Shown here: one piece after another, positions 5,809-35,803 of the stretch
Layout of the letters: each line of letters begins with the position of its first letter
How positions within the stretch are numbered: position 1 is the stretch's first letter
Source: Aneurinibacillus sp.
Lineage (GTDB): Bacteria; Bacillota; UBA5301; DYFA01
Direction: 5' to 3'
DNA: 64,000 nucleotides
Assembly: GCA_020725425.1 (NCBI GenBank)
Contig: DYFA01000027.1
Coordinates: forward strand, 24,131-88,130
Made by a program: the position numbers and the translations under genes
The notes under the pieces: generated by a model
Database searches by the model: none
Told to the model about the DNA's origin: nothing
Seen by the model: only the letters and a program-made list of their open reading frames with translations

Positions 5809-5905
5809 CCTCGCTCGAGATTGAGAGGATGGCGTCACCGGCGGGTGGCGGCGTCCTTTGTATCAATAACTTTACTCAAACTTTACACGCAAAGCAGGAA
5901 ACGGG

Positions 5906-17663: not shown

Positions 17664-18317
17664 TTACGCCTGCGAGGGGGAAAAGATGTCCCGGGAAGGG
17701 CAGTCCGGGGCGAGTGGGCAGGCGGCGCAGCGCGGCCGTCGGGCGGTGCAGACCTGCCGGCCGTGGGCGATGAGCTGATGGTGGGCGCGAAGTCGGAGGT
17801 CTGGCGGCACGAGGGCTTCCAACTCGTCGGAGACCTGGTCCGGCGTCTTGCCGGAGGCGAGGCCCAGACGGTGAGCCACCCGGAAGACGTGGGTGTCGAC
17901 GGGCAGATAAGGGCCGGCGAAGGCGTTGGCCAGCACCACCCCGGCTGTCTTGCGCCCGACCCCCGGCAGGGCGGTCAGGGCTTCGACGGAGGCGGGGACC
18001 TGCCCGCCGTGCTCCTCGACCAGGGCCCGGCAGACGGCGTGAATATGGCGCGCCTTGGTGCGGTTGAGCCCGCACTCCCGGATCAGGCCGGCCAGTTCCT
18101 CCTCGCTCAACTTCAGGAAGTCCTCCGGTCCGGGGTAGCGGGCGAAGAGCGGACCGCTCACCCGATTGACGCATTCGTCGGTGCACTGGGCGGAGAGCAT
18201 GGTGGCGATGAGCAGCTGAAAGGGGTTGGCGTGGACCAGGGCGCAGCGGGCCCCCGGGTAAGCCTGTTCCAGACGAGCGAGGATGCGTTTGAGGCGCTTG
18301 GTGTCACGTGAGCGCAT
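17664..18317 (-). CDS. nth: Endonuclease III
   Basis: HhH-GPD fold (LPGVGRKTAGVVL) with the C-terminal 4Fe-4S cluster loop C-x6-C-x2-C-x5-C. Confidence 0.9.
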   Translation of the reverse strand: MRSRDTKRLKRILARLEQAYPGARCALVHANPFQLLIATMLSAQCTDECVNRVSGPLFARYPGPEDFLKLSEEELAGLIRECGLNRTKARHIHAVCRALVEEHGGQVPASVEALTALPGVGRKTAGVVLANAFAGPYLPVDTHVFRVAHRLGLASGKTPDQVSDELEALVPPDLRLRAHHQLIAHGRQVCTARRPRCAACPLAPDCPSRDIFSPSQA

Positions 18318-18465
18318 GGCGGGGAGTTCGCTCCCTTCTCGCTTTCTTCCTGCTGGCGGAGGTGTCAGGCTGTGGCAGACCGCCTAGAACATGCCGCTTG
18401 GCGGAAGCAGGAAAACTCGCCTCAGATGTAGGAGTGTAACCCGAACACGGGCAAAGGAGTACCTC

Positions 18466-19416
18466 ATGCCGTCAGTCCTCATCACCGGCGCCAGCGGCTG
18501 CGTCGGCCACTATGTGGTCGACGAGTTTGCCGCGGCCGGATACGAAGCGTACCTGCTGGTACGGAACCCAGCCAAACTGCGCTTCGACCCGGCGACCCGC
18601 CCGAACGTCACTGTCGTCCGGGGCGACCTGACCGAACTGAGCGCCCACGCTGCGCTGCTTTCGCAGATGGACTACTGCGTCCATACGGCCGCTGCCTGGG
18701 GCGGGCCGGCGGCCTGGGAAGTGAACGTCCGCCGGACCCACGAACTGTTCACCCTGCTGAACCCGGAGCGGGTGCGGCGGATCGTCTACTTCTCCACCGC
18801 CAGCATCCTCGGCCGGGGAAACCGGTTGCTCCACGAGGTGGACCGGTACGGAACGGACTACATCCGCTCGAAGTACCGGGCCTATGTGGAGTTGCCCCAG
18901 TCACCCAACTATGAGCGGATCGTGACAGTCTTCCCCACCCTGGTCTTCGGGGGGGACCGGGGCCACCCCACCTCCCACCTCAGCTCCGGCCTGCCGCTCC
19001 TGAAGCGCTGGGCGTGGCTCCTGGGGCGGCTGGACACGGACGCCTGGTTCCACTTCATCCATGCCAGGGACATCGCCCGGCTGGTGCGACACTTGGTTGA
19101 GGCGGAACAGGTGGAGAAAGACAACGTCCTGGGGAATGAGCCGCTCAGCTTCGGCGAGTTCACCCGGCGGGTGGCGGCCTACTTCGGCCACCGGATCGGT
19201 TGGCAGCTCCATCTGTCCCCGCAGGCCATGTACCGCTTCGCGAGGCTCATGGGCGCCAGGATGAGCCCCTGGGACCGGTTCTGCATCGAATACGGCGACT
19301 TCCGCTACCGGACGGTCAACTGCCCCGCCGTGGGCCTGCCCGGCGACCTCTCGACCCTCGAGGGCATCCTGGCGGACTGGGAGCGGGCGCAGCGCGAGGC
19401 GGTGGTGGAGCCATAG
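18466..19416 (+). CDS. NAD-dependent epimerase/dehydratase family protein
   Basis: Rossmann motif ITGASGCVGHYVV. ATG after an AAAGGAG ribosome-binding site. Confidence 0.75.
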   Translation: MPSVLITGASGCVGHYVVDEFAAAGYEAYLLVRNPAKLRFDPATRPNVTVVRGDLTELSAHAALLSQMDYCVHTAAAWGGPAAWEVNVRRTHELFTLLNPERVRRIVYFSTASILGRGNRLLHEVDRYGTDYIRSKYRAYVELPQSPNYERIVTVFPTLVFGGDRGHPTSHLSSGLPLLKRWAWLLGRLDTDAWFHFIHARDIARLVRHLVEAEQVEKDNVLGNEPLSFGEFTRRVAAYFGHRIGWQLHLSPQAMYRFARLMGARMSPWDRFCIEYGDFRYRTVNCPAVGLPGDLSTLEGILADWERAQREAVVEP

Positions 19417-19418
19417 CC

Positions 19419-20438
19419 GGAGGGGTCCTGGTCATCCTGGCCTTCGCCGCGCTGGGGTCGGCCGCCGCGGTGGTGGCGCGCCGCTACCAGGCCCTGCGCC
19501 ATGACGTCCATGCCTTCACCACCTTCTCCTTCCCGATCAGGCGGCCGCGGCTCGCCGCCTTCACTGTAGCCGACCCCTATCGCGTCCCCGGCACCTACCG
19601 CAAGGGGCAACTCCACCTGCACACCTCCAACTCGCCGGACGTGCGGGAGAAGAAACCGGTCCGGGAGACAGTGCTGGCCTACCGGCGCGCCGGGTACAGC
19701 TTCGTGGTCCTGACCGACCACGACCGGGTGACCGACGTCGCGGGCCTGGCCGACCTGAACACCCCGGACTTCGCCGTGCTCCCGGGGGAGGAGAGGACTC
19801 TGCCGGTCATCACTTGGCCATTAGGGAGGCACCTGCTGCGGATCGGGATCGGCAGGGACGAGGTTCGGGCTGTGGCGCACCCGAGCTGGGGCGGGAATCT
19901 CGGAACCGGGCGCTGGAGCCTGAAAGACCTGCTGAGGCGGAGGGACTACCAGCTCATCGAAGTGCTCAACGGCAAGTCCAATTCGACCCTGGATTTCTGG
20001 CTGTGGCACAAGGTCCTCGAGCGGCGGGGATACGCCGATCCGGTCTGGGGGATCGCCGTGGATGACACCGACAACGCCGAGCCGATCGACGCCGGGTGGG
20101 TCATGGTCAAGACGGCGGAGGTCTCCCGGGAGGCCCTGCTGGCCGCCTTGCGGAGAGGCAGCTTCTACGCCACCAACGGCGCGCTGGCGGAGTTCGGGGT
20201 GGTGGACGGAGCGATCCGAGCCGAAGCCTCAGCGGGAGCCTGGATCAGGTTTATCAACGCCCGGAACGAGGTCGTGGCGGTTTTCCGGGGTGACCGGGGC
20301 GAGTACCGGCCGGTGGGCGACGAGGGGTTCGTCCGGGTCGAGGTGGAGAGCCAGGCTGGGTACGCCGCCTGGTCCCAGCCGTTCTTCCTGATCCCTTCGG
20401 ACGGCGCGGCGGAGGGGGGTGACGGGCGCCATGGATAA
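19419..20438 (+). CDS. PHP-domain metal-dependent phosphoesterase (membrane-anchored)
   Basis: N-terminal transmembrane helix, then GQLHLHTSNSPD and further His/Asp motifs typical of PHP domains. The start codon is unresolved: the ORF overlaps the 3' end of the upstream gene and has no obvious ATG/GTG. Confidence 0.5.
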   Translation, partial: GGVLVILAFAALGSAAAVVARRYQALRHDVHAFTTFSFPIRRPRLAAFTVADPYRVPGTYRKGQLHLHTSNSPDVREKKPVRETVLAYRRAGYSFVVLTDHDRVTDVAGLADLNTPDFAVLPGEERTLPVITWPLGRHLLRIGIGRDEVRAVAHPSWGGNLGTGRWSLKDLLRRRDYQLIEVLNGKSNSTLDFWLWHKVLERRGYADPVWGIAVDDTDNAEPIDAGWVMVKTAEVSREALLAALRRGSFYATNGALAEFGVVDGAIRAEASAGAWIRFINARNEVVAVFRGDRGEYRPVGDEGFVRVEVESQAGYAAWSQPFFLIPSDGAAEGGDGRHG

Positions 20439-22164
20439 GACCCGCCGACTTTTGGCCTATCTCAAGCCGCACTGGAGGACGTTCCTCGGTGGCTTCCTGG
20501 CCATGCTCGTGGTCATCGCCATCAACCTCATGATCCCCTTCATCTTCGGCCGGCTGCTGGGGACTCTCCTCCACCGGGGACAGCAGGTTCAGCTCAACCT
20601 CCTGGCCGGCGGCGTGGTGGTGCTCGTCCTCATCAAGGGGGCCTTCTCCTTCGCCCGCAACTACCTGATGGCTTTCACCGGCCACCGGGTCGTCGTCAGG
20701 CTGCGTAACCAGATCTACGAGCAACTGCAGCGGATGTCCATCGGGTACCACGAGTCCCACCGGACCGGCGAACTCCTGGCCAGGATCACGAACGACGTAG
20801 GTCTTATCCAGACGAGCATCTCCAGCGGGGTGGCGGACCTCCTCTACCAGTCCCTCTACCTTACCGGGGTGTTGGTCGCCCTGTTTTACCTGCACTGGCG
20901 GCTGGCGCTCCTGACCCTCACCGTCTTTCCCCTGGCCGCCTACGTCGTGTCCCGGGCGGGGGAGCGCATCCGGGGGGTGAGCCGGCGCGTCCAGGAGAAG
21001 GTGGCCGACCTCACCTCCGTCCTCCACGAGAACCTGGCCGGCATTCGGATCATCAAGGCTTTCACCATGGAGGAGCGGGAGGCGCAGCGGTTCGCCGGGG
21101 AGAACGAGGCCAGCTTCCGGGCGGTCATGCGGTCGGAACAGGCTGTGGCGACGCTGGGCCCGCTGATCGAGCTGATCTTCACCGTGGCGCTGGCACTGGT
21201 GATGTGGTACGGCGGGGGGGAGGTCATCCGCGGGCGCCTGGAGGCCAGCGAGCTTCTAACCTTTTTCACCCTGATCGCCATGGCGGGGGCGCCTCTGACG
21301 ACGCTGACCAACACCTTCAACGGCTTCCAGCAGGCTCTGGCCGCCGCCGAGCGGGTGTTCCAGGTCCTGGACTCCGAACCGGAGATCCGGGACGCGCCGG
21401 GCGCCATCACCCTCCCTCGCCTGGCGGGGCGGGTGGAATTCCAGGACGTGACCTTCGGCTACCGGGAGGGGCAGCCGGTCCTTTCCCACCTGAACCTGGA
21501 CGTCCGTCCGGGCGAGGTGGTGGCGCTGGTCGGGCCGAGCGGCGCCGGCAAGACCAGCCTGGTGAACCTCATCCCCCGCTTCTACGATCCGTCGGAAGGC
21601 CGGGTCCTGGTGGACGGGTACGACCTCCGGACGGTCAAGGCGGCCTCCCTCCGTGCCCAGATCGGTCTCGTCCCCCAGGAGACGCTGCTCTTCAGCGTGA
21701 GTGTCCGGGAGAACATCGCCTACGGGCGGCTCGGGGCGACGGAGGAGGAGATTGTCGCCGCCGCCAAGGCGGCCAACGCCCATGACTTCATCCTGGAACT
21801 GCCGGACGGCTACGACACCCTGATCGGCGAGCGGGGGGCCGCTCTCTCCGGGGGACAGCGGCAGCGAATCGCCATCGCCCGGGCCATCCTGCGCGACCCG
21901 CGCCTTCTCATCCTGGACGAGGCGACCTCCGCCCTGGACACTGAATCGGAGCGACTGATCCAGGCGGCGCTGGAAAACCTGATGCGGGGCCGGACGACCT
22001 TCGTGATCGCTCACCGGCTCTCCACGGTCCAACGCGCCCATCGGATCGTCGTCCTGGCCGAAGGACGCATTGTCGAGCAGGGAACCCACGAGGAGCTGCT
22101 GGCGAAGGACGGCCTGTACCGCAGGTTGTACGAGACGCAGTTCACTGAGGGTCCTCGACCGTAA
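20431..22164 (+). CDS. ABC exporter, fused permease-ATPase (MsbA-like)
   Basis: Six transmembrane helices, then ATPase domain (GPSGAGKTS; LSGGQRQRIAIARAIL; LILDEATSALD). ATG at 20431 is about 14 nt after GGAGGGGGG. Confidence 0.85.
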   Translation: MDKTRRLLAYLKPHWRTFLGGFLAMLVVIAINLMIPFIFGRLLGTLLHRGQQVQLNLLAGGVVVLVLIKGAFSFARNYLMAFTGHRVVVRLRNQIYEQLQRMSIGYHESHRTGELLARITNDVGLIQTSISSGVADLLYQSLYLTGVLVALFYLHWRLALLTLTVFPLAAYVVSRAGERIRGVSRRVQEKVADLTSVLHENLAGIRIIKAFTMEEREAQRFAGENEASFRAVMRSEQAVATLGPLIELIFTVALALVMWYGGGEVIRGRLEASELLTFFTLIAMAGAPLTTLTNTFNGFQQALAAAERVFQVLDSEPEIRDAPGAITLPRLAGRVEFQDVTFGYREGQPVLSHLNLDVRPGEVVALVGPSGAGKTSLVNLIPRFYDPSEGRVLVDGYDLRTVKAASLRAQIGLVPQETLLFSVSVRENIAYGRLGATEEEIVAAAKAANAHDFILELPDGYDTLIGERGAALSGGQRQRIAIARAILRDPRLLILDEATSALDTESERLIQAALENLMRGRTTFVIAHRLSTVQRAHRIVVLAEGRIVEQGTHEELLAKDGLYRRLYETQFTEGPRP

Positions 22165-22215
22165 GACCGTAATTGGTCCGATTTATCCGAAGCCGGGATA
22201 AGGCATACTTAGAGC

Positions 22216-24111
22216 ATGGTTATTCTGCTTCTGGTCGCCATCCCGCTGGCGGCGGGGTTGTTCACGCTGATCGGCGGGGCGTGGACGAGATACGTCGCCG
22301 TGGGTGGGGCCGTCCTGTCGCTTCTCTCGGGGGCAGCCCTCGTTCTGGCGCACGGCCGCCTCGCCCTGGATGCCGCCACCCTCCTCGGCGGCTTCCGTCC
22401 CGGCCCGCTCTTCGGGATTCTCGATGCCCTGCTCCTGGCCTACATCGGCCTGACCGGCTGGCGGCTGCGGCACCTCCTCCTCACCCTGCTTGCCTTGGTA
22501 CAACTGGCTGGGATCCTCTACCTCGAAGGGGTGCCCCGGCCCGAAGCCGGCCGCTTCGTCGTGGACGGGCTCTCGGCAGTGATGGTGCTCGTCGTCTCCG
22601 TCGTGGGTTCGCTGGTGGCCCTCTTCAGCCTCCCCTACATGCGGGAGTACGAGCGGCACGCCCAGGGCACGGCGGGACCCAGGCGCTTTTTCGCCGTGCT
22701 CCTCGCTTTCCTCGGCCTCATGAACGGCCTCGTCCTGGCCGATGACCTTCACTGGGTCTACTTCTTCTGGGAGGCGACCACCCTTGCCTCATTCCTGCTC
22801 ATCTCCCATCCGCAGTCGGGCGACGCCGTCCCCAACGCGGCCTATGCGCTGACGGTCAACTCGCTCGGAGGCGTGGCCTTCGTCGGCGCTCTGGTCCTGC
22901 TCGCGGGGCGGGGAGAAGCGTCCCTCGAACAGCTCGCGGCGACACCGCCTGCTCCCGGAATCCTCGTGCCGCTGGGGCTGCTCCTCTTCGCCGCCTTCAT
23001 CAAGGCCGCCCAGTTCCCCTTCCAGCGCTGGCTCACCGCGGCCATGGTGGCCCCCACCCCGGTCTCAGCCCTCCTCCACTCCAGCACCATGGTGAAGGCC
23101 GCCGTCTACCTCGTCCTTCGCCTGGCGCCGGCCTTCCGCGGCACACCCCTGGCGCTGGCGGCCGCCGTCTACGGGGCCTTCTCCTTCTTCGCCGGTTCGG
23201 CCACAGCCATCGGACAGGCCAACGGAAAGAAGGTGCTGGCCTACTCGACCATCGCCAACCTGGGGCTCATCATCGCCTGCGCCGGTGTGGGGACGACCGG
23301 CGCCCTCGCCGCCGCGATCCTCCTGGTCCTCTTCCACGCCGCCACCAAGGCGCTCCTCTTCCTCTGCGTGGGGACGATCGAGCACGGCATCGGCACCCGC
23401 AACATCGAGGAGATGGAAGGGGTCATGTGGAAGATGCCGGTGACGACGGTCCTAACCGTTCTCGCCATGCTGGCGATGGTGGTCCCCCCCTTCGGCATGC
23501 TGATCGGAAAGTGGCTGGCGATCGAATCGAGCGTCCGGACCCCGCTGGTCCTGGCCTTCGTCGTCTTCGGCTCCGCTTTCACTCTCGTCTTCTGGTCCAA
23601 GTGGATCGGCCGGATTCTCACCGTCTCCTACCACCGGAAGTTCCGCTGGGAGCGCCTGCCCGTCCTCCTCCGCCTTCCCAAGCTCCTGCTCCTTTTGGCC
23701 GTCTTCTCTGGGAGCATCGGCGTGGCGCCCCTCTACAACCGGCTCGTCCGGCCGGTGATCGTCGACCAGTTCGACGCCCGGGGCTTTGTCCGAACCGGCG
23801 GGGGAGGACTGACCACCGGCTTCGGGGATTTCCTGCCGTGGCCCATTTTCCTGGTCATCCTGGGAGTGCTGCTGCTCCTCCTCGTCATGGTCGGCCGACT
23901 CGAACCGGAGGACGCCCGACCGCCGTATCTTTGCGGAGAGAACGCCGACCAGAAGCCGGGAACGTCCTTCCACACCGCCCGGGACGAGGTGGAGATCGCT
24001 GAGACAGGCAACTTCTACCTGGAGTCGGTCTTCGGCGAGGGAATGGTGCGCCAGTGGGCCGACCCGCTAGCCCTGGCGATCCTGTTGCTGATGGTGGGGT
24101 TCCTGCGGTAA
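22216..24111 (+). CDS. echA: Ech-type hydrogenase membrane subunit (NuoL/MnhA antiporter-like; EchA/HyfB-like)
   Basis: 631-aa polytopic protein of the complex I antiporter-subunit family. First gene of an ech-like operon. Confidence 0.75.
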   Translation: MVILLLVAIPLAAGLFTLIGGAWTRYVAVGGAVLSLLSGAALVLAHGRLALDAATLLGGFRPGPLFGILDALLLAYIGLTGWRLRHLLLTLLALVQLAGILYLEGVPRPEAGRFVVDGLSAVMVLVVSVVGSLVALFSLPYMREYERHAQGTAGPRRFFAVLLAFLGLMNGLVLADDLHWVYFFWEATTLASFLLISHPQSGDAVPNAAYALTVNSLGGVAFVGALVLLAGRGEASLEQLAATPPAPGILVPLGLLLFAAFIKAAQFPFQRWLTAAMVAPTPVSALLHSSTMVKAAVYLVLRLAPAFRGTPLALAAAVYGAFSFFAGSATAIGQANGKKVLAYSTIANLGLIIACAGVGTTGALAAAILLVLFHAATKALLFLCVGTIEHGIGTRNIEEMEGVMWKMPVTTVLTVLAMLAMVVPPFGMLIGKWLAIESSVRTPLVLAFVVFGSAFTLVFWSKWIGRILTVSYHRKFRWERLPVLLRLPKLLLLLAVFSGSIGVAPLYNRLVRPVIVDQFDARGFVRTGGGGLTTGFGDFLPWPIFLVILGVLLLLLVMVGRLEPEDARPPYLCGENADQKPGTSFHTARDEVEIAETGNFYLESVFGEGMVRQWADPLALAILLLMVGFLR

Positions 24112-24161
24112 GGCCTGTGAGGTTAATACAGCGCACCTCCCGGCGGGAGACTATAACTTCG

Positions 24162-25034
24162 ATGGTTTACCGTCCACTCCTGATCGCTTTTGGAGTCCTT
24201 GTCCTGGCGCCGCTCCTGGGCGGGCTCCTCACCGGGTTCGACCGGTGGCTCTCGGCGCGCCTCCAGGCGAGGGTCGGCCCTCCGCTCTGGCAGCCCTTCG
24301 CCGACCTGGTGAAGCTGTGGCACAAGGACCGGCTCACCGTCAACGTGGTGCAGATCCTCTACGCCAACGCCTACCTACTCTTCGTCGCAGCTGCCCTGGC
24401 GGAGCTGGCCCTGGGCCACGACCTCCTGATGCTTCTCTTCACCCTCGCCTTCGGCACCATCTCGCTGGTGCTGGGGGGGTTCAGCGTCCGCTCCCCCTAC
24501 AGCCGGTTCGGAGCCCAGCGGGAGATCATGCAGCTTCTGGCGTACGAACCGATCCTGGTTCTGATGGTGGTGGCGATCTACCTCCGAACGGGCAGTTTCC
24601 TGGTGAGCCGGGTGGTCGTCTTCCCACGACCCTTGCTCCCCAGCCTGCCCCTGATCTTTCTCGGCTACCTGCTGGTCGTCGTCATCAAGCTGCGCAAGTC
24701 CCCCTTCGACCTGGCCACCTCACTCCACCACCCCCACCAGGAACTGGTCAAGGGCATTCTCACCGATTATTCCGGGCCATACTTGGGCATCATCGAGCTG
24801 GCCCACTGGTACGAGCTCGTCCTGCTTCTCGGTCTGGCGGGTCTCTTCTGGGCGACCAGCGTCTGGGCGGCGGCCGGGGTGGCTCTCCTGGTCTACCTGG
24901 CAGCCATCACCGTCGACAACGTCTCCGCCCGGGTTACCTGGGCCTGGATGCTGCGCTTCGCTTGGCAGGCGGGGCTGGGGTTGGCCGCCATCAACGTAGT
25001 CTGGCTGTACCTTTGGGGGGCGGGTATGCCGTGA
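24162..25034 (+). CDS. echB: Ech-type hydrogenase membrane subunit (NuoH/HycD-like; EchB)
   Basis: NuoH-family helices and N-terminal LLGGLLTGFDRWLSARLQARVGP..WQPFADLVKL. Confidence 0.8.
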   Translation: MVYRPLLIAFGVLVLAPLLGGLLTGFDRWLSARLQARVGPPLWQPFADLVKLWHKDRLTVNVVQILYANAYLLFVAAALAELALGHDLLMLLFTLAFGTISLVLGGFSVRSPYSRFGAQREIMQLLAYEPILVLMVVAIYLRTGSFLVSRVVVFPRPLLPSLPLIFLGYLLVVVIKLRKSPFDLATSLHHPHQELVKGILTDYSGPYLGIIELAHWYELVLLLGLAGLFWATSVWAAAGVALLVYLAAITVDNVSARVTWAWMLRFAWQAGLGLAAINVVWLYLWGAGMP

Positions 25035-25531
25035 GCATCGTGCGGTGGGCCCGGGGGAAGTCGCCCTGGTATTTCCACTACGAGACGGGGAGCTGCAACG
25101 GGTGCGCCATCGAGGTCTTCGCCCTCCAGACCCCCCTCTACGACCTGGAACGGTTCGGGATCATGAACACCGGCAACCCCAAGCACGCCGACCTCCTCCT
25201 CGTCACCGGCTGTGTCGGGTATCGGAGCGGGCGGGTGCTCCGGAACCTGTACCACCAGATGCCCGGGCCGAAGGCGGTGGTGGCGATCGGGGTCTGCGCC
25301 CTGACCGGCGGCATCTTCCACGACTGCTACAACCTGGCTCCGGGGGCCGACAAGGTGATACCGGTGGACGTCTACGTGCCGGGGTGCGCCCCCTGGCCGG
25401 AGGCCATGATCGACGGGATCCTCCTGGCGGCGGAGAAGCTCCGGGGGGCGCCGGTGGCCCGGGACCGCCGGCGCCTGGTCGAAGAGGAGGAACCGCCGGC
25501 CGGGGGGGCGGGGGAGGAGGGGAAGGCATGA
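25031..25531 (+). CDS. echC: [NiFe] hydrogenase small subunit (NuoB-like; EchC)
   Basis: NuoB-like Fe-S motifs GSCNGCAIE, AIGVCALTGGIF, VPGCAP. GTG at 25031 overlaps the upstream stop (GTGA). Confidence 0.85.
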   Translation: MSIVRWARGKSPWYFHYETGSCNGCAIEVFALQTPLYDLERFGIMNTGNPKHADLLLVTGCVGYRSGRVLRNLYHQMPGPKAVVAIGVCALTGGIFHDCYNLAPGADKVIPVDVYVPGCAPWPEAMIDGILLAAEKLRGAPVARDRRRLVEEEEPPAGGAGEEGKA

Positions 25532-25896
25532 TCCCGGACGTCACTCAGGTGGGAGTGGAGCAGTTGCTCACGGTGGTCCAGGGCTTGGCGGAGGAAGGGT
25601 GCCGGCTCGTCTCCATCACCGGCGTGGACGCCGGCGACGCCTTCGAGCTGCTCTACCACTTCGACCGGGAGTTGCGCCTGACCCACCTGCGGGTCCGTCT
25701 CCCGAAGGGGCAGGAACTGCCCAGCATCAGCCGGATCTACTTCTGCGCCTTCGTCCCCGAGAACGAACTCCAGGACTTCTTCGGGATCAGGGTGGCCAAC
25801 CCGGTGATCGACTACGGGGGGCACATGCTCCTCGCCCGCGAGTCGCCGGAGACGCCTCTCGTCAAGCGGGAGCGGCCGGAGGGGGCAGAGCGCTAG
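25528..25896 (+). CDS. echD: NuoC-like subunit (EchD)
   Basis: 122-aa NuoC/30 kDa-like domain. ATGA overlap with echC. Confidence 0.7.
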   Translation: MIPDVTQVGVEQLLTVVQGLAEEGCRLVSITGVDAGDAFELLYHFDRELRLTHLRVRLPKGQELPSISRIYFCAFVPENELQDFFGIRVANPVIDYGGHMLLARESPETPLVKRERPEGAER

Positions 25897-26975
25897 TGCC
25901 CGGCCAGAGCGTGATCCCCTTCGGGCCCCAGCACCCCGTCTTCCCCGAACCCCTCCAGTTACGCCTGGTGATGAAAGAGGAGCGGGTGCTGGAGGCCGTC
26001 CCCGCCCTCGGCTACATGCATCGGGGCTTGGAGAAGCTCGCTGAGACGAAGGACTACGCCCAGAACGTCTTCCTCATGGAGCGGGTCTGCGGCATCTGCA
26101 GCTTCATGCACTCCCTCTGCTACTGCCAGGCGCTCGAGGATCTGATGGGAATCGAGGTCCCGCCCCGGGCCCGCTACCTCCGGACCATCTGGGCCGAACT
26201 TGGCCGCCTCCAGTCCCACCACCTCTGGCTGGGCCTTTTGGCCGACGCCTTCGGGTTCGAGAGCCTCTTCATGGAGTGCTGGAAGAACCGGGAGATCGTG
26301 ATGGACCTCTGCGAGGCGACCACGGGGAACCGGGTGATCATCTCCGGCAACGCCGTCGGGGGCTGCCGGCGGGACCTCGAACCCTCGGTCCTGAAGGAGA
26401 TCGGGCGGCGGATGGACGACCTGGAGCGAGGGTTGGACCGGGTGGCGCCGGTCTTCCAGGACGACCCCCTGATCAAGCAACGCACTGTCGGGACGGGGAT
26501 CATCACCCGGGAGGAGGTCATCCGGCTTGGGGCGGTGGGGCCGGTCCTCCGGGCCAGCGGGGTGGCGCAGGACATGAGGCAGCTCGGCTACGCCGCCTAC
26601 GGGGAACTGGACTTCCGGCCGGTGGTGGAAACGGGCGGGGACTCCTACTCCCGGCTGATGGCGCGCCTCGGCGAGACCTACCAGGCGATCGACCTGGTCC
26701 GGCAGGCGCTGCGGAGGATCCCAGAGGGCGAGGTGCTGCCGAAGGTCAAGGGACGCCCGGAGGGAGAGGCGGTCAGCCGGGTGGAGCAGCCCCGGGGGGA
26801 GCTCCTGTACTACGTCCGGGCCACCGGGAAGCCGCAGCTCGACCGGGTGCGGGTGAGGACCCCGACCCTCTCCAACATCCCCCCGCTCGTCCGGATGCTG
26901 GAGGGGTGCCGCCTGTCCGACGTGCCGGTGATCGCCCTCTCCATCGACTCCTGCGTCAGTTGCACCGAGCGCTGA
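25896..26975 (+). CDS. echE: [NiFe] hydrogenase large subunit (NuoD-like; EchE)
   Basis: N-terminal Ni-binding motif RVCGICSFMH and C-terminal DSCVSCTER (the DPCxxCxxR type, ending at the stop), as in Ech/Mbh group 4 enzymes. 359 aa. Confidence 0.9.
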   Translation: MPGQSVIPFGPQHPVFPEPLQLRLVMKEERVLEAVPALGYMHRGLEKLAETKDYAQNVFLMERVCGICSFMHSLCYCQALEDLMGIEVPPRARYLRTIWAELGRLQSHHLWLGLLADAFGFESLFMECWKNREIVMDLCEATTGNRVIISGNAVGGCRRDLEPSVLKEIGRRMDDLERGLDRVAPVFQDDPLIKQRTVGTGIITREEVIRLGAVGPVLRASGVAQDMRQLGYAAYGELDFRPVVETGGDSYSRLMARLGETYQAIDLVRQALRRIPEGEVLPKVKGRPEGEAVSRVEQPRGELLYYVRATGKPQLDRVRVRTPTLSNIPPLVRMLEGCRLSDVPVIALSIDSCVSCTER

Positions 26976-26994
26976 TTGCCTGCAGAAGAGGTGA

Positions 26995-27366
26995 ATGAGC
27001 GAAGTGTTCGAGATGCTCCGCGTCCTCAGCGCCAATCTCGGCCGCGGCCCGGCGACCCGGCGGTATCCGGCGGAGAAGCGAGCGATATTCCCCTCCTCCC
27101 GGGGGCGGATCGAGAGTGTCATCGAGAACTGCATCTTCTGCGGGGTCTGCCAGAAGCGGTGCCCGGCGGACTGCATCGTGGTGAACAAGGCGGAGAGAAC
27201 CTGGAACCTCGACCCCTACCAGTGCATCGTCTGTGGGGTGTGCGTGGAGGTCTGCCCGACGAAGGCCATCGCCATGCGGACCGAATACCGCAAGCCGCGC
27301 AGCGAGCGGACTCCCCTGACCCACCACCAGGAACCGGGACCCCGCGAAGGGCGGGTCGAAGGCTAG
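26995..27366 (+). CDS. echF: 2x[4Fe-4S] ferredoxin subunit (NuoI-like; EchF)
   Basis: Two CxxCxxCxxxCP motifs (CIFCGVCQKRCP; CIVCGVCVEVCP). Confidence 0.8.
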   Translation: MSEVFEMLRVLSANLGRGPATRRYPAEKRAIFPSSRGRIESVIENCIFCGVCQKRCPADCIVVNKAERTWNLDPYQCIVCGVCVEVCPTKAIAMRTEYRKPRSERTPLTHHQEPGPREGRVEG

Positions 27367-27397
27367 GGCGGAGGAACGGCCGGGGGGCGGGGAAGGG

Positions 27398-28309
27398 TCA
27401 CTCGGCAAGCGGTTCCTGCACCAGTTCCGCCCGACGCTCCGGGAGAGCGGCCAGTACCACCCCGGTGACTACGAGGCCGATGGCCAGGACCCCCTGAGCG
27501 GTGACCGCCTCCCCGAAGAAGGCGCCCAGGATAACGGCGATGACCGGGTTGACGAAGGCGTAGGTCCCGACGATGTGCGGGGGGACGTGCGCGACCAGCC
27601 ACGAGAAGGAGAAGTAGCCGATGCAGGAGCCGAAGACCGCGAGGTAGAGTATGGCCAGCAGGGGCTTAGGGGCGAGCAGCGCCGGGCCGACCCTGGCGCC
27701 ATCGCCGTGGAGCAGCGCCAGAAGCACGAAACCCGCCCCCCCGGCCAGCATCTGATACGCCACGCGCACCAGGAGCGATCCGGCGGGGCGGCGCTTGGCG
27801 ACCCAGACCGAGGCGAAGGCCCAGGTTGCCGCACCGACCAGCAGGATGAAAGCGTTGGCGGCCGACACCGCGGCTCCGCCGTTGGCGACCAGCAGGGCCA
27901 CCCCCGACAGGCCGAGCGCCAGGGCAACGAAGACGCGGAGGCTGGGGCGGGCGTGGGTCCCCATGAGCCAGGCGAAGAGCGTCATCCAGATGGGCACCGT
28001 GGCGGTGAGGGTGGCGACCAGACCTGAGGAGGTGGTCTGTTCCGCCCACAGCACGGCGCCGTTCCCCACCGGAAAGAGGAGCAGCCCGGAGAGGAAGGAG
28101 GTGGCCAGGGCGCGGCGGTCGAGCCGGAGCGAGTGTCCGAAGGCCTTGGCGGTGAGCAGCATCAACGTGCCCGCCGAAAGGAAGCGGACGACCCCGGTGA
28201 GGAACGGCGGCCAAACGGCGACGGCGAAGCGGATCGCCAGGTAGGTCGAGCCCCAGACCACGTAGATGATCGCCAGGTGGGTGAGCGCCAGGGGCGATAG
28301 ACTAGTCAT
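27398..28309 (-). CDS. EamA/DMT-family transporter
   Basis: 10-TM protein built from two EamA repeats. Confidence 0.7.
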   Translation of the reverse strand: MTSLSPLALTHLAIIYVVWGSTYLAIRFAVAVWPPFLTGVVRFLSAGTLMLLTAKAFGHSLRLDRRALATSFLSGLLLFPVGNGAVLWAEQTTSSGLVATLTATVPIWMTLFAWLMGTHARPSLRVFVALALGLSGVALLVANGGAAVSAANAFILLVGAATWAFASVWVAKRRPAGSLLVRVAYQMLAGGAGFVLLALLHGDGARVGPALLAPKPLLAILYLAVFGSCIGYFSFSWLVAHVPPHIVGTYAFVNPVIAVILGAFFGEAVTAQGVLAIGLVVTGVVLAALPERRAELVQEPLAE

Positions 28310-28324
28310 GCTCGACTCCCTTCG

Positions 28325-29161
28325 TCATTCCCGGGTGATGAGGCACGGGCCGAGGATCTCCGGACCCGTGTGGCTGGCGATCACCGGGGAAAGGCGGACC
28401 AGCGGCACCGGCATCCCGGCGACGGCCTCCATCTCCCGGGCGAAGGCGGTCGCCTCCTCCAGGTTGTCTCCGTAGTGGAGGGCGATCTTCTCAATCCCCC
28501 GCCCGGCCCGCTCCTTCACAAGCTCGATGAGGCGCGCCCGGGCCGCCTTGGTGGTGCGGATCTTCTCCAGGGCCTCCATTGTCCCCGCCGAGTCGAACCA
28601 GATGATCGGCTTGATCTGGATGAGCGAGCCGAGCAACGCCTGGGCTCCGGAGAGCCGGCCCCCTTCATAGAGGTAGCGGAGGGACTCGACGACGAAGTAA
28701 GTCCGAGTCCGGGCGATGAGGTCGTCCAAGGCGCGGACGATCTCCTCTCGGCCGGCCCCGGCGTCCGCCATCTCCTTCGCCCTGAGGGCCAGGGAGGCCT
28801 CGCCGAAGCCGCTCTGGCGGGAGTCCACGACGGAGACCCGGTCGGTTTCGAGCAGTTGCCTGGCGAGGTTGGCCGAGTTCAGCGCCCCGGAGATGCGGCT
28901 CGACAGCACGATGCAGATGACCTCGTCCCCTGCCTCCACCGCCGGCCGGAAGTGCTCGAGGAAGGCGTTGGGGTCCGGCTGGGCGGTGGAGAACCTGGCT
29001 CCCGCCCGCTGCCGCCGGTAGAACTCCGCGTAGGAGAGGTCGAACAGCTCCCGCTGGACGTTCTCGCCCTCCCGGACGTACAACGGCACGGCGGTAAGGC
29101 CGTGCTGGCCGTACCATTCCAGCGGCATGGAACAGGTGGTGTCGACGATGACCCTGATCAT
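28325..29161 (-). CDS. DegV-family fatty-acid-binding protein
   Basis: Typical DegV N-terminus MIRVIVDTTCSMP...GLTAVPLYV. GGAGGGA ribosome-binding site before the ATG at 29161. Confidence 0.8.
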   Translation of the reverse strand: MIRVIVDTTCSMPLEWYGQHGLTAVPLYVREGENVQRELFDLSYAEFYRRQRAGARFSTAQPDPNAFLEHFRPAVEAGDEVICIVLSSRISGALNSANLARQLLETDRVSVVDSRQSGFGEASLALRAKEMADAGAGREEIVRALDDLIARTRTYFVVESLRYLYEGGRLSGAQALLGSLIQIKPIIWFDSAGTMEALEKIRTTKAARARLIELVKERAGRGIEKIALHYGDNLEEATAFAREMEAVAGMPVPLVRLSPVIASHTGPEILGPCLITRE

Positions 29162-29270
29162 ACTGTTCCCTCCACGCAAAACGGACTTGACCGAATGACC
29201 GCTTGTTGCTTACTACGGCATTGGAAGGCGTAAACCTTCCGTGCATACTATCACCAAGGAGGCGATCCTT

Positions 29271-30479
29271 TTGCGGACCTGGGACCTGATCGTGGTGGGG
29301 GCGGGGCCGGCCGGCGCGGCGGCCGCCCGGGCGGCCGCCCGGGCCGGCGTCGAGACGCTGATCCTGGAGGCGGAGGAGTTTCCCCGGCCGAAACCGTGCG
29401 CCGGAGGTCTCTCGGCAGCGGCCCTGAAGGAGCTGGGGGAGCCGCTCCCGCCCGGAGTGGCGGGGCGGGCGTGCCGGGCTGTGCGGCCTCGCTACGGCGG
29501 CTTGGCGGTTACAGTGCGCCGGGAGGAGACGCTGGTCGAGGTGGTCCACCGGGACCGGTTCGACGCCTACCTGCTCTCCCTGGCCCGGCAGGCTGGGGCC
29601 GAGGTGAGGCACGGGACCCGGGTCACCGCCGCCGAGCCGGGGAGCGACGGGGTGACCTTGCGCACTGACCGGGGGACGTGGCGCGCCCGGGTGGTCGTGG
29701 GAGCCGACGGCGCCCGGAGCAGGGTCGGCCTGGCGGTCCGCCCGCCGTTCCCCCGCCGCGACCTCGGGGTGTGCCAGGTCGGGGAACTGCCCCTCCGCCC
29801 CCAGGAGTACGAAACCTTCTTCGTTGATGGGCTCGAGGTGTGGTACAGCAACCCGGAGAAAGGCTACGGCTGGATCTTCCCGCAGGAGGCCGGCCTGAAC
29901 GTAGGCATCGGCAGCGTCGCCCGGTACTTGCCTTCGCCCCGCCGCGAGCTGTCGCGCTTCCTGGCCCTGGCCGGGCTCCCGGAGCCGGCGGCGGTCAAGG
30001 GGGCAGTCCTGCCGCTCGGCGGGCGGAATCATCCCGGGCAGGCCGCGCGGGTGCTGCTGGCGGGGGACGCTCTGGGCGTGGCCGACCCTTTCACCGGTGA
30101 GGGTATTCGTTATGCCCTGCTTTCGGGGCGGCTGGCTGGCGAGTGCGCTGCCGCGGCGCTTCACCGCTCCCCCGCCCACCCGGACCTCTCCTCCTACCCC
30201 GCGCGGTGCTGGGAGAGCTTCGGGGCCGACCTCCGGTATGCCCGCCTCTTCGCCCGCCTCTACCTCTCGCTCGATCAGCGGCTCAACCGCTTGGTCTTCC
30301 GCCACCCCGGTCTCTTCTCCCGGGTGGCTGACATCATGCAAGGGAAGGGCACCTACCGCGATCTCGTGGGGAAGCTCGGGAGTCATCTGCCCGGCTACTG
30401 GCTGCGGGGTCTCATGAACCGCCAAACCCGTGAGTTTAGTCGAACAATTTCGGAAAGAACGTTGCGACCACCAGGATGA
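29271..30479 (+). CDS. Geranylgeranyl reductase family FAD-dependent oxidoreductase
   Basis: FAD dinucleotide-binding motif DLIVVGAGPAGAAAARAAARAG..LILE. TTG at 29271 lies 8 nt after AAGGAGG. The track ATG at 29241 has no ribosome-binding site. Confidence 0.7.
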   Translation: MRTWDLIVVGAGPAGAAAARAAARAGVETLILEAEEFPRPKPCAGGLSAAALKELGEPLPPGVAGRACRAVRPRYGGLAVTVRREETLVEVVHRDRFDAYLLSLARQAGAEVRHGTRVTAAEPGSDGVTLRTDRGTWRARVVVGADGARSRVGLAVRPPFPRRDLGVCQVGELPLRPQEYETFFVDGLEVWYSNPEKGYGWIFPQEAGLNVGIGSVARYLPSPRRELSRFLALAGLPEPAAVKGAVLPLGGRNHPGQAARVLLAGDALGVADPFTGEGIRYALLSGRLAGECAAAALHRSPAHPDLSSYPARCWESFGADLRYARLFARLYLSLDQRLNRLVFRHPGLFSRVADIMQGKGTYRDLVGKLGSHLPGYWLRGLMNRQTREFSRTISERTLRPPG

Positions 30480-31692
30480 TGGTCAGGGCGATCATCACCC
30501 AGGTTGTCACCCAGGCCACCACATTGTACCAGCGTGAATTGACGTAGTTGCCCATGAGTCTGCGGTCGTTGATGAGAAGCTGCATATAGATCAGGATGAA
30601 TGGCAAAAGGATGCCGTTCGCCACCTGGGACAGGTACATCATCAGGATCAGAGGCGCGTTGGGAATCAGAACAATCCCGACTGCGAGAACGATCAAGCCG
30701 GTGTACAAGCCGAAGAACCAGGGTGCCTCTTTGAACGTCTTGTTGACTCCGGATTCCCAGCCCATACCTTCACAGACGGAGTAGGCAGTCGATAACGGGA
30801 GAATCGAGGCAGCGAAGAGGGAGGCGTTGAACAGCCCAAAGCCGAACAGCGCAGCCGCATGTTTGCCTGCGAGGGGACGGAGGGCCATCGCAGCGTCTTT
30901 GGCGGTCTCGATTTGGATGCCATGTGCGAAGAGAGTAGCCGCGCAAGCCGCCACGATGAACCAGGCTACGATGTCCGTGACGAAACATCCCAGCACCACG
31001 TCCAGGCGGGAGTATCTGTAATCGCATACCCGGATCCCCTTCTCGACGATGGACGATTGAAGATAGAACTGCATCCAGGGAGCGATCGTCGTTCCGACCA
31101 TGCCGATGACCATCATGATGTAGCTCGGCTCAAAGCTAAAACTTGGAGTTACCGTGGCACGCAAGAGTTCTCCCCAGTGTGGCTTGGCCATGATGCCGGA
31201 GATGACGTATGCCACGTAGAACACGCACGCTGCTAGAAAGACCTTCTCAACGGTCTTGTATGTCCCCTTGACCACCAGCCACCATACCAGGACTGCCCCG
31301 AGCGGCACGGTGATGTACTTGGAGATACCAAAGACTTCTCCCGCAGCCGCTACCCCGGCGAAGTTACCGACCGTGTTGGCCAGATTGGCGATCAAGAGAC
31401 CCAAGAGAAGGTAAAACGTGGTCTTGACCCCGAAATTCTCCCGAATAAGGTCAGAGAGGCCCTTGCCGGTTACGGCGCCCATCCGGGCTACCATTTCTTG
31501 AACTACGATCAGCGCGAATGTTATGGGGACAAGGGTCCAGAGCATAGCTGCGCCATAATGCGCCCCGGCCAGAGAATAGGTGGTAATGCCGCCGGCGTCG
31601 TTGTCGACGTTGGCGGTGATAATCCCTGGACCTACCACACTCAGCCAGAAGAAGAGGCTGCCGAGCCTTGCTTTCACATCTCTCACTAGCAT
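30436..31692 (-). CDS. mntH: NRAMP-family divalent metal transporter (MntH-like)
   Basis: 11-12 transmembrane helices and an NRAMP N-terminal signature region (VVGPGIITANVDNDAGGITTYSLAGAHYG). Confidence 0.75.
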   Translation of the reverse strand: MLVRDVKARLGSLFFWLSVVGPGIITANVDNDAGGITTYSLAGAHYGAAMLWTLVPITFALIVVQEMVARMGAVTGKGLSDLIRENFGVKTTFYLLLGLLIANLANTVGNFAGVAAAGEVFGISKYITVPLGAVLVWWLVVKGTYKTVEKVFLAACVFYVAYVISGIMAKPHWGELLRATVTPSFSFEPSYIMMVIGMVGTTIAPWMQFYLQSSIVEKGIRVCDYRYSRLDVVLGCFVTDIVAWFIVAACAATLFAHGIQIETAKDAAMALRPLAGKHAAALFGFGLFNASLFAASILPLSTAYSVCEGMGWESGVNKTFKEAPWFFGLYTGLIVLAVGIVLIPNAPLILMMYLSQVANGILLPFILIYMQLLINDRRLMGNYVNSRWYNVVAWVTTWVMIALTIILVVATFFPKLFD

Positions 31693-31713
31693 GGCGTCAT
31701 CTCCGTTTCGCTC

Positions 31714-32985
31714 CTAGACCCGACGGAGGCGCTTCCGGCGGTTGGCGAGGTAGACGTCGTCCACCACGTCGTGGATGAGGGCCATGCCGAGCAGGTGCTG
31801 GCCGGCGTCGACCACCGGGATGGCCAGGAGGTCGTACTTGGTCATCACCTCGGCCACCTCGTTCTTGTGCGCATCCTCCTTAACGAAGAGGACGTGGGGG
31901 TCCATGATCGCCCAGAGCGGCTGGTCCGGCTCAGCCACCACCAGGTCGCGCAAGGAGACCACGCCGATCAGGTGCTGCTCCCCGTCGACGACGTACAGAT
32001 AGTAGGCCGAGTCCGGGTCCGGCTTCAGCCGCCGTAACTCCTCGATGGTTTGAGCGGTAGTGAGCTCCTCCCGGAAGGAGAGCACGTCGGTGGTCATCAG
32101 GCGCCCGGCCGTGTCCTCCTCGTATTCGAGCAGTTCCCGGACGTCCTCTGCCTCCTCGTCCTCCATCTGCTCCAGGAGTTCCTGAGCCCGCCGTTCCGGC
32201 AGCTCACCCAAGATGTCGGCCGCTTCGTCGGCCGGCATCGACTCCAGGATGTCGGAGGCCTTCTCTCCCCCCAACTGTTCCAGGACATCGGCCTGCGCTT
32301 CCGGCTCCATCTCCTGCAGGGTCTCGGCGGCCACGTCCACGTTCAGGGCGGACATGACCGCCGCCCGCTCCGGCCGGTTCAGGGCCTCCAGGATGTCGGC
32401 TAGGTCCGCCGGGTGGAGCTTGCTCAGCCGCTCGTACGGCACAGCGAGCTTGACCTGGTGGGGGGCGCTGGTGATGGGTTCCACGTCCCGCCAGGAGATG
32501 AAGTAGTCCTCGATCGGCTTGGGCAGGAGCTTATCCAAGCCATGGACCAGGCGGCGCAGCCCCAGCCGGCGCAGCAGGCCGCGCAGGCCCACCTCGACGG
32601 CCACGAGCCGCAGCACGCCGTTGATCTCGGCCAGCTTGATGTCGTTGATCCGCCGTACCTTCAGCCCGTTCAGGTCGACGATCTGCTTGTCGAGGAGGTC
32701 CCGCTTGAGATGGAGCAGCTTCTCCGGGAGGGATTGCTCGTCGACCTCGTCTTTCTGCACCGAAAGGGTCAGGTACTGGCGGACGAGCACCTGGATGAGC
32801 GACCAGGGAATCCTCCGGAGGGCGCCGCGCTTCGTCCGCACCTCCAGCCCCACCACCGGCGGAAACTCCTCCCCCGGCTCGACCAGGATATCGTTCACCC
32901 TGCCCAGACGCTTGCCGAAGCGGTCGACCACTGTCTTTTCGAGTAAGCGACTCGCGTGGATCTCAGGCACGATGGCGACGGACAT
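31714..32985 (-). CDS. Soluble PRC-barrel + MgtE-N + CBS-pair protein (no channel domain)
   Basis: MgtE intracellular N domain (LADILEALN..., acidic helix) and a tandem CBS pair. It lacks the MgtE transmembrane domain. ATG at 32985 after GGGAGGTGAG. Likely co-transcribed with the NRAMP gene. Confidence 0.7.
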   Translation of the reverse strand: MSVAIVPEIHASRLLEKTVVDRFGKRLGRVNDILVEPGEEFPPVVGLEVRTKRGALRRIPWSLIQVLVRQYLTLSVQKDEVDEQSLPEKLLHLKRDLLDKQIVDLNGLKVRRINDIKLAEINGVLRLVAVEVGLRGLLRRLGLRRLVHGLDKLLPKPIEDYFISWRDVEPITSAPHQVKLAVPYERLSKLHPADLADILEALNRPERAAVMSALNVDVAAETLQEMEPEAQADVLEQLGGEKASDILESMPADEAADILGELPERRAQELLEQMEDEEAEDVRELLEYEEDTAGRLMTTDVLSFREELTTAQTIEELRRLKPDPDSAYYLYVVDGEQHLIGVVSLRDLVVAEPDQPLWAIMDPHVLFVKEDAHKNEVAEVMTKYDLLAIPVVDAGQHLLGMALIHDVVDDVYLANRRKRLRRV

Positions 32986-33342: not shown

Positions 33343-33448
33343 GGAGGGGAGCCAGCCGAGTCGAGGTCACAGGTTGAGTGGAGAAGAGACGAGCAAAGAG
33401 CAGGCAGGACCCGTTCAGGTCTGACTCTTTGGAGTCGGGCCGTTTTTG
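33343..33448 (+). promoter_or_regulatory. trp leader attenuator: GAG-triplet array followed by an intrinsic terminator
   Basis: Nine GAG triplets at 33343, 33348, 33357, 33362, 33375, 33380, 33385, 33390 and 33397, mostly 2-nt spaced. These are followed by the nested hairpin GACCCG..GACUCuuugGAGUC..GGGCC and then UUUUUGUU. Confidence 0.45.
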
Positions 33449-33484
33449 TTACCTCGTCCTTCTCCCGCCCCGGAGGTGGGAAAG

Positions 33485-35803
33485 GTGTCCGCAGACTTGT
33501 CCGTCCTGCGGGAGTCGCTTCCGCTCGTCACCGCCCCGCACCCGGAGAGGGTCCGGATAAGGTTAGGGGAGGTGGTCGCCGGCGGCCCGGTCCCGGTGGT
33601 CATCGCCGGCCCCTGCGCCGTGGAGAGCCTGGCGCAGCTCCTCCAGACCGCCCGGCAGGTCAAGGCCGCCGGCGCCCACGGCTTGCGCGGCGGCGCCTTC
33701 AAGCCCCGCAGTTCCCCCTACAGCTTCCAAGGTTTGGGTCGGCCAGCTCTGGAGATGTTGGCCGCGGCCAAGGTCGAGACGGGTCTCTTCCTGACCATCG
33801 AGGTGATGCGGGAGGCTGAGGTCGACCTGGTGGCCGACTACGCCGACCTGCTCCAGATCGGCGCCCGGAACATGCAGAACTTCGCCCTGCTGCGGGCCGT
33901 GGGAAGGTGCCCCCGCCCGGTGCTGCTCAAGCGGGGGATGGCCGCCACTGTCCGGGAGTGGCTGCAGGCCGCGGAGTACATCCTTGCGGAAGGGAACCCC
34001 AGCGTCATCCTTTGCGAGCGCGGAATCCGCACCTTCGAACCGTGGACCCGCAATACCTTCGATGTCGCCGCTATCTCCCTGGTGCGCAACCTGTCCGGAC
34101 TGCCGGTCTTCGCCGACCCCAGCCACGCCGCCGGCCGGCGGGAACTCGTTCCCCCTCTGGCCCGGGCCGCTCTGGCGGCGGGGGCCGACGGCCTCCTGCT
34201 CGAGGTTCATCCCGATCCGTCGAGGGCGCTCTCCGACGGCGACCAGTCGCTCACCCTGGAGGAGTTCGCAAACCTGATGCGCGGCCTGGCCCCGTTCTGC
34301 GCCGGCCGGGAGCCGGTTTCCCGCAGGAGCCGGCCGGCGGGGATCAGCCCGGCAGCCGGTGAGTTCCCGGAACTGGCGGCCCGCGGCTACCGCCACGCCC
34401 CGGTCTTCACCCAGTTCACCAGCGACGAGCTTACGCCGGTGGGGATTTTCCGTCGCCTGGTGCATCAGGGGCCCGGCTTCCTCTTGGAAAGCGTGGAGTC
34501 CGGGGGAAACGGAGTCGGCCGGTACTCCTTCTGCGGTGACCGCCCGCTCCTGACCCTGACCGCCCGGGGCCGCCGCCTGGAGCAGAAGGGGCCCGGCCGG
34601 CTCGAGGAGGCGTCGGAGGGCGACGTCCTGGACCGGCTGCGCGAGCTCCTGGAGGTGTTCCGCGTGGCGCCGGTCGAGGGGTTACCCCGCTTCTACGGGG
34701 GAGCCGTGGGCTATTTGGGCTACGACTACGTACAGGCGTTGGAACCCATCCCTGCGACCGCCCCGGACCCGCTGGGGCTGCCGGACTCCTTCTGGCTGGT
34801 GCCGGAGCGACTCGTGGTCCTGGACCACGTCACCGGCGCGGTGACAGTGATCATCCTGGCGCCGACGGACCGGGAGGGGTACGAACGGGCCTCATCCCTC
34901 CTCGAGGCCACCCTCGCCGAACTGCGCCAACCGTGCCCGGCGCGGGAAGCGAAGCCGGAACCAGCTGGAGCCCTCCTCTCTTCGGTCTCCCAGGCGGAGT
35001 TCTGCACGGCCGTGACGAAGGCCAAAGAGTACATCGCCGGGGGTGACGCCTTCCAGGTGGTGCTCTCCCGGCGGCTGACCACCCCCTACGCCGGCGACGC
35101 CGTTGAGCTGTACCGGGCCCTGCGCTCCGAGAACCCTTCGCCCTACCTGTTCCTCCTCGACTGCGGCGGTTTCCACCTGGTCGGCTCCTCCCCGGAGATG
35201 CTGGTGCGCCTGGAGGGAACTACGGCCGAGATCCGCCCGCTGGCAGGGACCAGGCCTCGGGGCCGGGACAGCGAGGCCGACCGGGCCCTTGAGGCGGAAT
35301 TGCGGGCTGACGCCAAGGAGTGCGCCGAGCACGTCATGCTGGTGGACTTGGGCCGTAACGACCTGGGGCGGGTCTGCCGGTTCGGGAGCGTTCAAGTGCC
35401 GGAGTTGATGGGGGTGGAGCGGTTCTCCCGGGTGATGCACCTCGTCTCCCGCGTCACCGGCGAGCTGGCGCCGGGCCAGGACGCCTTTTCGCTGCTCAAG
35501 GCGGTCTTCCCCGCCGGGACGCTGACCGGCGCCCCGAAGGTGCGGGCGATGCAGCTCATCGCCGAACTGGAGCCCTTCCAACGCGGCATCTACGGCGGGG
35601 CGGTGGGGTACGTCGGGTTCAACGGCAGTCTGGACGCCTGCATCGCCATCCGCACGGCGGTCCTCTGCGACGGCCGGGTCAGCGTGCAGGCCGGAGCGGG
35701 GATCGTCGCCGACTCCGACCCGGAGCGGGAGTACGCCGAGACGGCCCACAAGGCGGCGGCCGTTCTCGCCGCCGTCCGCCGGGCGCAGGAGGGACGGTCA
35801 TGA
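33485..35803 (+). CDS. trpE: Fusion protein: DAHP synthase (class I-beta, AroG/KdsA-like) + anthranilate synthase component I (TrpE)
   Basis: N-terminal [10 protein letters not shown]...[19 protein letters not shown]...IGARNMQNF...LLKRG...[10 protein letters not shown]...[10 protein letters not shown] matches the unadorned I-beta DAHP synthase core. A roughly 30-aa linker is followed by the TrpE body (LLESVESGG...GRYSF...[15 protein letters not shown]). One continuous ORF. GTG at 33485 after GGAGGTG. Confidence 0.85.

Follow-up and report, generated by a model that had tools for sequence, protein, structure and literature searches.

We analysed a 64,000-nucleotide stretch of contig DYFA01000027.1 (hereafter the window), from a Bacillota metagenome-assembled genome (GCA_020725425.1), and identified six tightly packed genes on its forward strand (22216-27366) that very probably (at roughly 90%) encode an energy-converting [NiFe] hydrogenase of the canonical Ech type (group 4e) – complete, intact and predicted to be ferredoxin-coupled. 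The group 4e traits present are the subunit set and its order (echABCDEF), four Ni-Fe cysteines and a terminal arginine in the large subunit, the cluster motifs of EchC and EchF, and the placement of the large subunit in trees. We assigned the operon to this group because it encodes a single antiporter-like subunit, a free NuoC-like EchD and an unextended large subunit, with no formate dehydrogenase or CO dehydrogenase gene nearby. Ech is a membrane-bound [NiFe] hydrogenase of six subunits, with CooMKLXUH as a homologue, and uses the ferredoxin-dependent reduction of protons to build an H+/Na+ potential (PMC5861303).

The operon span proposed in a preliminary description of this DNA ends exactly at the echA start and the echF stop, and the subunit order and sizes given there were borne out by the open reading frame list and the Pfam domain of each product. 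From the open reading frames, junction sequences and translations, we resolved six genes. The first two encode integral membrane subunits: echA (22216-24111, ATG start) an antiporter-like (NuoL/MrpA-like) protein of 631 residues and echB (24162-25034, ATG start) a NuoH-like protein of 290 residues. They are followed by echC (25031-25531, GTG start, 166 residues), encoding a NuoB-like hydrogenase small subunit with one [4Fe-4S] site; echD (25528-25896, ATG start, 122 residues), encoding a small, free-standing NuoC-like subunit; echE (25896-26975, GTG start, 359 residues), encoding the [NiFe] large (catalytic) subunit; and echF (26995-27366, ATG start, 123 residues), encoding a NuoI-like 2x[4Fe-4S] subunit. 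Start and stop codons overlap at the echB/echC (GTGA), echC/echD (ATGA) and echD/echE (TAGTG) junctions, all three as previously described, and spacers of 50 nt and 19 nt separate echA from echB and echE from echF, respectively. The real echF start may instead be the GTG at 27004, giving 120 residues, since this choice fits the MFEM... N-terminus of relatives and has the better-spaced GAGGTG; the operon finding is unaffected by this alternative.

The large subunit carries both sets of Ni-Fe ligands. An N-terminal RVCGICSFMH motif (residues 63-72, encoded at 26082-26111 on the forward strand) supplies Cys65 and Cys68, and a C-terminal DSCVSCTER motif (residues 351-359, encoded at 26946-26972 on the forward strand) supplies Cys353 and Cys356 – the RxCGxCxxxH and DxCxxCxxR patterns that the preliminary description had reported for a 359-residue protein. 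The stop codon lies directly after the motif arginine, leaving no C-terminal extension. In a phmmer search of PDB sequences, EchE aligned over its full length with MbhL of the Pyrococcus furiosus Mbh complex (6CFW, 1.3e-70) and HycE of Escherichia coli formate hydrogenlyase (7Z0S, 1.7e-66). RVCGICSFMH lines up with ERMCGICSFSH of MbhL and DRVCGICGFAH of HycE, and all four EchE cysteines occupy the same alignment columns as those of the two structures. In Pfam, EchE matched Complex1_49kDa (1.1e-58) and NiFeSe_Hases (4.6e-12).

The remaining subunits likewise match the families expected of them. EchC (Oxidored_q6, 4.8e-29), whose closest solved structure is MbhJ (6cfw_J, 4.8e-43), retains the proximal [4Fe-4S] cysteines when aligned to that protein: Cys22 and Cys25 (SCNGC), Cys89 (GVCALTGG) and Cys119 (PGC). 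EchF matched Fer4_7 (8e-14) along with other Fer4 and 4Fe-4S dicluster families and contains two CxxCxxCxxxCP motifs, CIFCGVCQKRCP (27130-27165, forward strand) and CIVCGVCVEVCP (27223-27258, forward strand). EchD matched Complex1_30kDa (1.8e-12), and none of EchC, EchD, EchE and EchF has a predicted membrane segment.

EchA and EchB are strongly hydrophobic, EchA with many hydrophobic segments. EchA matched Proton_antipo_M (4.6e-52) and Proton_antipo_N (2.6e-09), and its closest solved structures are MrpA (6z16_A, 1.5e-49) and Nqo12. It keeps the charged residues of the ion channel – Glu186 (FFWE), Lys263 (FIKAAQFPF), Lys294 (HSSTMVKA) and Lys378 (HAATKA) – at positions that align with conserved charged residues of MrpA and Nqo12. 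EchB matched NADHdh (1.3e-39), with MbhM (6cfw_M, 2.6e-18), MbsM and HycD as its closest solved structures.

We observed close relatives of this operon in many genomes. EchE is 100% identical to MDI6871758.1 from the Bacillota metagenome-assembled genome GCA_030019095.1, a protein annotated generically as 'nickel-dependent hydrogenase large subunit', and the Ech (group 4e) call is a modest annotation gain over that name. Approximately 6,900 proteins match EchE at E <= 1e-10. The best 120 share 59-93% identity with it, many of them named 'ech hydrogenase subunit E' by JGI; EchE is 55-63% identical to proteins called Ech subunit E overall, 60-63% in pairwise comparison with the EchE-labelled proteins used for placement, 60-61% to Caldicellulosiruptor proteins and 56% to the protein of an Acetivibrio straminisolvens locus. 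A scan of one genome per species yielded 563 confirmed relatives, from which 80 loci were kept for all counts of related loci given here. With the six window proteins as tblastn queries, the A-B-C-D-E-F order was the same in all 80 wherever the contig was long enough, and EchD held the same operon position throughout. The operon is an ordinary member of a well-known family, and thousands of anaerobic bacteria carry the same one.

Comparison with the Ech of Methanosarcina barkeri and the six-subunit Ech of Caldicellulosiruptor and Acetivibrio showed a shared subunit order, a single antiporter-like subunit, a free EchD, a large subunit of ~358-359 residues with both CxxC motifs and an arginine end, and a 2x[4Fe-4S] EchF. 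The window operon differs from these systems in its host, a high-GC (~68%) Bacillota genome, and in a serine that replaces the proline of the C-terminal D-P-C, a substitution found in its close clade only.

To place EchE among group 4 large subunits, we built two neighbour-joining trees. In the first, it fell within the EchE-labelled set. For deeper sampling we searched 1.84 billion 50%-identity representatives and built a second tree from ~100 full-length group 4 large subunits. The nearest neighbours of the window clade in that tree (P0178, P0172, P0179, P0216, P0245 and P0254) all lack a C-terminal extension, and those that carry a name at source (P0178, P0172 and P0216) are called 'ech hydrogenase subunit E'. 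A large subunit that ends at the motif arginine without an extension is typical of Ech and Coo hydrogenases. On the MbhL and HycE branches, the proteins run 12-54 residues further at the C-terminus, and in many of them NuoC is fused to the N-terminus.

The best solved-structure matches of the ech subunits are Mbh and formate hydrogenlyase subunits, which could suggest a formate hydrogenlyase (group 4a) or a complex of the Mbh or Mrp type (group 4b/4d). The core large, small, NuoH-like and antiporter-like modules of the P. furiosus and E. coli complexes are indeed homologous to those encoded here, with identical Ni-Fe and Fe-S ligands. However, these matches rank first because the PDB sequence set holds no Ech structure nearer than Mbh or formate hydrogenlyase, and with MbhL and HycE, EchE shares just 39% identity. 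Formate hydrogenlyase works with a formate dehydrogenase and a HycB-type subunit, and its HycE is fused to a NuoC-like domain and bears a C-terminal extension that is cleaved; the window EchE has neither the fusion nor the extension. Mbh has additional Mrp-type subunits, and Mbh/Mrp types comprise ~13-14 genes in total, whereas the window operon encodes a single antiporter-like subunit and lacks small membrane subunits of the Mrp type. With no formate dehydrogenase gene in the window or the 10 kb on either side of it, we consider membership of these groups extremely improbable. The preference in the preliminary description for a ferredoxin-coupled Ech over a formate hydrogenlyase is thus supported by composition, tree and the lack of a nearby formate dehydrogenase gene, as far as sequence comparison can indicate.

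A CO-induced Coo-type hydrogenase (group 4c), partnered with CO dehydrogenase, is another candidate: CooH and EchE are of similar length, neither has a C-terminal extension, and the Ech subunits have homologues in Coo (PMC5861303). Gene order argues against this alternative. The ferredoxin-like subunit comes last in the window operon, whereas in cooM-K-L-X-U-H it precedes the NuoC-like subunit. Moreover, neither a CO dehydrogenase nor a CooF gene is present in the window or the 10 kb on either side, and the cluster that contains a 'carbon monoxide-induced hydrogenase' (P0232, CooH-named) lies on a different branch of the tree from the window EchE. We regard a Coo-type enzyme as very unlikely.

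Several points weigh against the group 4e assignment. The neighbour-joining trees are rough, their 'EchE' labels come from automatic JGI annotation, and their anchors were PDB chains rebuilt from alignments together with auto-named cluster members. The large-subunit phylogeny suggested in the preliminary description holds in that the window protein stands apart from Mbh, Hyc, CooH and NuoD, while its EchE side consists of auto-labelled proteins rather than curated Methanosarcina and Thermoanaerobacter references. In addition, the C-terminal motif of EchE has a serine where 92% of homologues have a proline. Among the 120 top homologues the variants were DPC (110), DSC (7) and DTC (3), with DSC limited to the window EchE and its closest relatives, and the motif arginine was the C-terminal residue in all 120. 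We interpret the proline-to-serine change as a small clade-specific trait and, judging from the alignments, as the sole peculiarity of the operon.

The last of these points concerns maturation: hyp genes are needed for an active enzyme, and none lies close to ech. Precomputed Pfam annotations of all called genes cover the window and the 10 kb past each end. They contain no maturation protease, CO dehydrogenase or formate dehydrogenase gene and no hyp gene, in agreement with the earlier report that hyp and formate dehydrogenase genes are missing from the window. When HypA/B/D/E/F from related loci were used as tblastn queries, there was likewise no match in the window or its extensions. The window operon differs here from related Ech loci, 47 of the 80 having hypA/B/F/D/E directly after echF, and having hyp apart from ech characterizes this lineage. 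We assume that the hyp genes are probably elsewhere in the genome, since a second [NiFe] hydrogenase is encoded on the same contig.

The absence of hyp genes nearby could also be read as a mark of an inactive remnant or of a complex I-like module that is not a hydrogenase, and the NuoD equivalog NF004739 is in fact the best-scoring NCBIfam model for EchE. Yet its score, 309.8, falls short of the 360 cut-off, with the best-matching stretch confined to residues 7-281, and the collection contains no Ech-specific model; across the ech proteins a generic NuoB subfamily model passes and all other matches are under cut-off. Complex I NuoD/Nqo4 shares a fold family (Complex1_49kDa) with EchE and lacks all four cysteines. 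Nqo4, NuoCD and NdhH have no cysteine at any of the four Ni-Fe columns and align strongly only to about residue 281, and NuoD-type proteins are 33-36% identical to EchE. A NuoD identity was rejected, given the four Ni-Fe cysteines and the sub-cut-off NF004739 score. The preliminary description had named a position within NuoD and a loss of the Ni-binding cysteines as outcomes that would overturn its assignment; instead, the trees group the large subunit with EchE-labelled proteins, and the four cysteines match MbhL and HycE column for column.

Features of the operon as a whole also make a remnant highly improbable. The metal ligands and channel residues are all intact, the genes are tightly coupled, and none of the six contains a frameshift. 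We consider the ech frames to be coding because their third-position GC is 0.81-0.90, in a surrounding region of 67-69% GC, and their codon-position GC is typical of expressed genes in the same genome. The operon appears to show no sign of decay.

If the complex works as its characterized homologues do – from which we take the ferredoxin partner, ion pumping and reversibility – EchE and EchC would together make up the Ni-Fe active site and the proximal [4Fe-4S] cluster belonging to it, and EchF would provide two further [4Fe-4S] clusters that exchange electrons with soluble ferredoxin. EchD would be a NuoC-like structural subunit. EchB and EchA would constitute the membrane arm, coupling 2 Fd(red) + 2 H+ <-> 2 Fd(ox) + H2 (where Fd is ferredoxin) to the translocation of H+ (or Na+). 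An excess of reduced ferredoxin would lead the enzyme to evolve H2 and build an ion gradient; H2 together with a gradient already in place could drive it to reduce ferredoxin.

The same complex might operate mainly in reverse, with gradient-driven H2 oxidation supplying biosynthesis or CO2 fixation with reduced ferredoxin, a role put forward for Thermoanaerobacter kivui and Methanosarcina. Ech is known to be reversible: Ech2 purified from T. kivui depends on ferredoxin, pumps protons into liposomes and can also run backwards (PMC10986591). Ech1 and Ech2 of T. kivui are, like the complex predicted here, membrane [NiFe] hydrogenases (ferredoxin-dependent, proton-translocating and reversible; PMC10986591), though their clusters have nine and eight genes compared with six here. 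A Tat-exported uptake-type [NiFe] hydrogenase with a cytochrome b on the same contig suggests that the organism consumes H2. On the other hand, the window holds no indicator of direction for a reverse-running Ech, and many close relatives are fermenters with an H2-evolving Ech (Caldicellulosiruptor and the Acetivibrio group). We consider a mainly reverse role possible, if rather unlikely.

The uptake-type hydrogenase is encoded by three genes ~25 kb upstream of ech (L087 6843-9944), ending ~57 nt before window position 1. It comprises a 354-residue small subunit with a Tat signal (RREFLK), a 471-residue large subunit and a b-type cytochrome. The large subunit contains RICGFCPGSH and DPCNDCAVQ motifs plus a 13-residue tail, with a glutamine after the C-terminal motif where a histidine is usual. 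There are no hyp genes beside it. These features resemble those of a group 1 uptake enzyme.

The two hydrogenases could, in principle, form an intracellular hydrogen-cycling loop. Inside the cell, cytoplasm-facing Ech would use reduced ferredoxin to produce H2, and the Tat-exported, cytochrome-b-linked enzyme outside would re-oxidize it and feed electrons into a membrane electron chain; the proline-to-serine change, which adjoins the Ni-binding cysteine, could tune Ech for this role. We regard this scheme as speculative and quite doubtful. Taken together, ech and the upstream uptake hydrogenase mark the organism as a putative H2-metabolizing anaerobe: an uncultured, high-GC member of the Bacillota that would be able to couple ferredoxin and H2 to an ion gradient. 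Beyond genome annotation the significance is slight.

Upstream of ech are an epimerase gene, a gene for an unknown protein and an MsbA-like ABC exporter gene that ends 51 nt before echA; downstream are a convergent EamA transporter gene, genes for DegV, an FAD reductase, NRAMP and an MgtE-like protein, and a trp operon. The exporter and EamA genes bracket just the six ech genes. Scanning positions 20300-27800 for promoters and terminators gave no promoter-like site and no terminator past echF, and an Rfam scan of 18000-32000 gave no match. Co-transcription of ech with the exporter gene is possible.

Some of the related loci share or depart from these surroundings. The closest genome relative (L001, JBLNCL010000008.1) has an EchE 93% identical to that of the window and the same flanking genes. 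Its record is labelled 'Betaproteobacteria bacterium'; this name is probably wrong, through taxonomic mislabelling or faulty binning, since the locus is syntenic with the window's Bacillota genome. Two further relatives are 73-74% identical; their labels read Syntrophothermus sp. for L002 and Bacillota bacterium for L003. At L002 13093-18579 and L003 13460-18837 (both minus strand), two large open reading frames (926-994 residues and ~626 residues) follow ech on the opposite strand. Judged by their N-terminal sequences alone, these may be formate dehydrogenase/NuoG-like and NuoF-like. The pair is absent from the window.

Other features of the window were noted in passing. At 29312-29338, inside the FAD-reductase gene (29241-30479), the ends of JASEFQ010000020.1 and JASEFQ010000015.1 (reversed), both from GCA_030019095.1, overlap by ~27 bp; the window bridges these two contig ends, so its source is a longer assembly of that genome. 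The NRAMP gene (30436-31692, minus strand) and the first 6 kb of the window (1-6000, encoding a secretin and unknown secreted proteins) have a GC content of 0.60-0.63 and a third-position GC of 0.69-0.82. These regions may have been acquired horizontally, as their GC is clearly lower than that of the rest of the window (0.66-0.72).

The trp operon begins with a gene (33446-35803, forward strand) for a fusion of DAHP synthase (PF00793) with anthranilate synthase component I (Chorismate_bind), ~772-785 residues long; trpG/D/C/F/B/A follow it, to 40839. A minus-strand cluster at 52033-54421 encodes HcyBio (a COG1900-type homocysteine biosynthesis protein of 388 residues), a NIL-domain 2x[4Fe-4S] ferredoxin of 136 residues and an ApbE-like protein; it resembles the sulfide-dependent homocysteine pathway of methanogens and some anaerobic bacteria. 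Finally, a gene at 62250-63086 (minus strand) encodes a ComA-type phosphosulfolactate synthase (PF02679), which is unusual outside coenzyme M or sulfolipid contexts.

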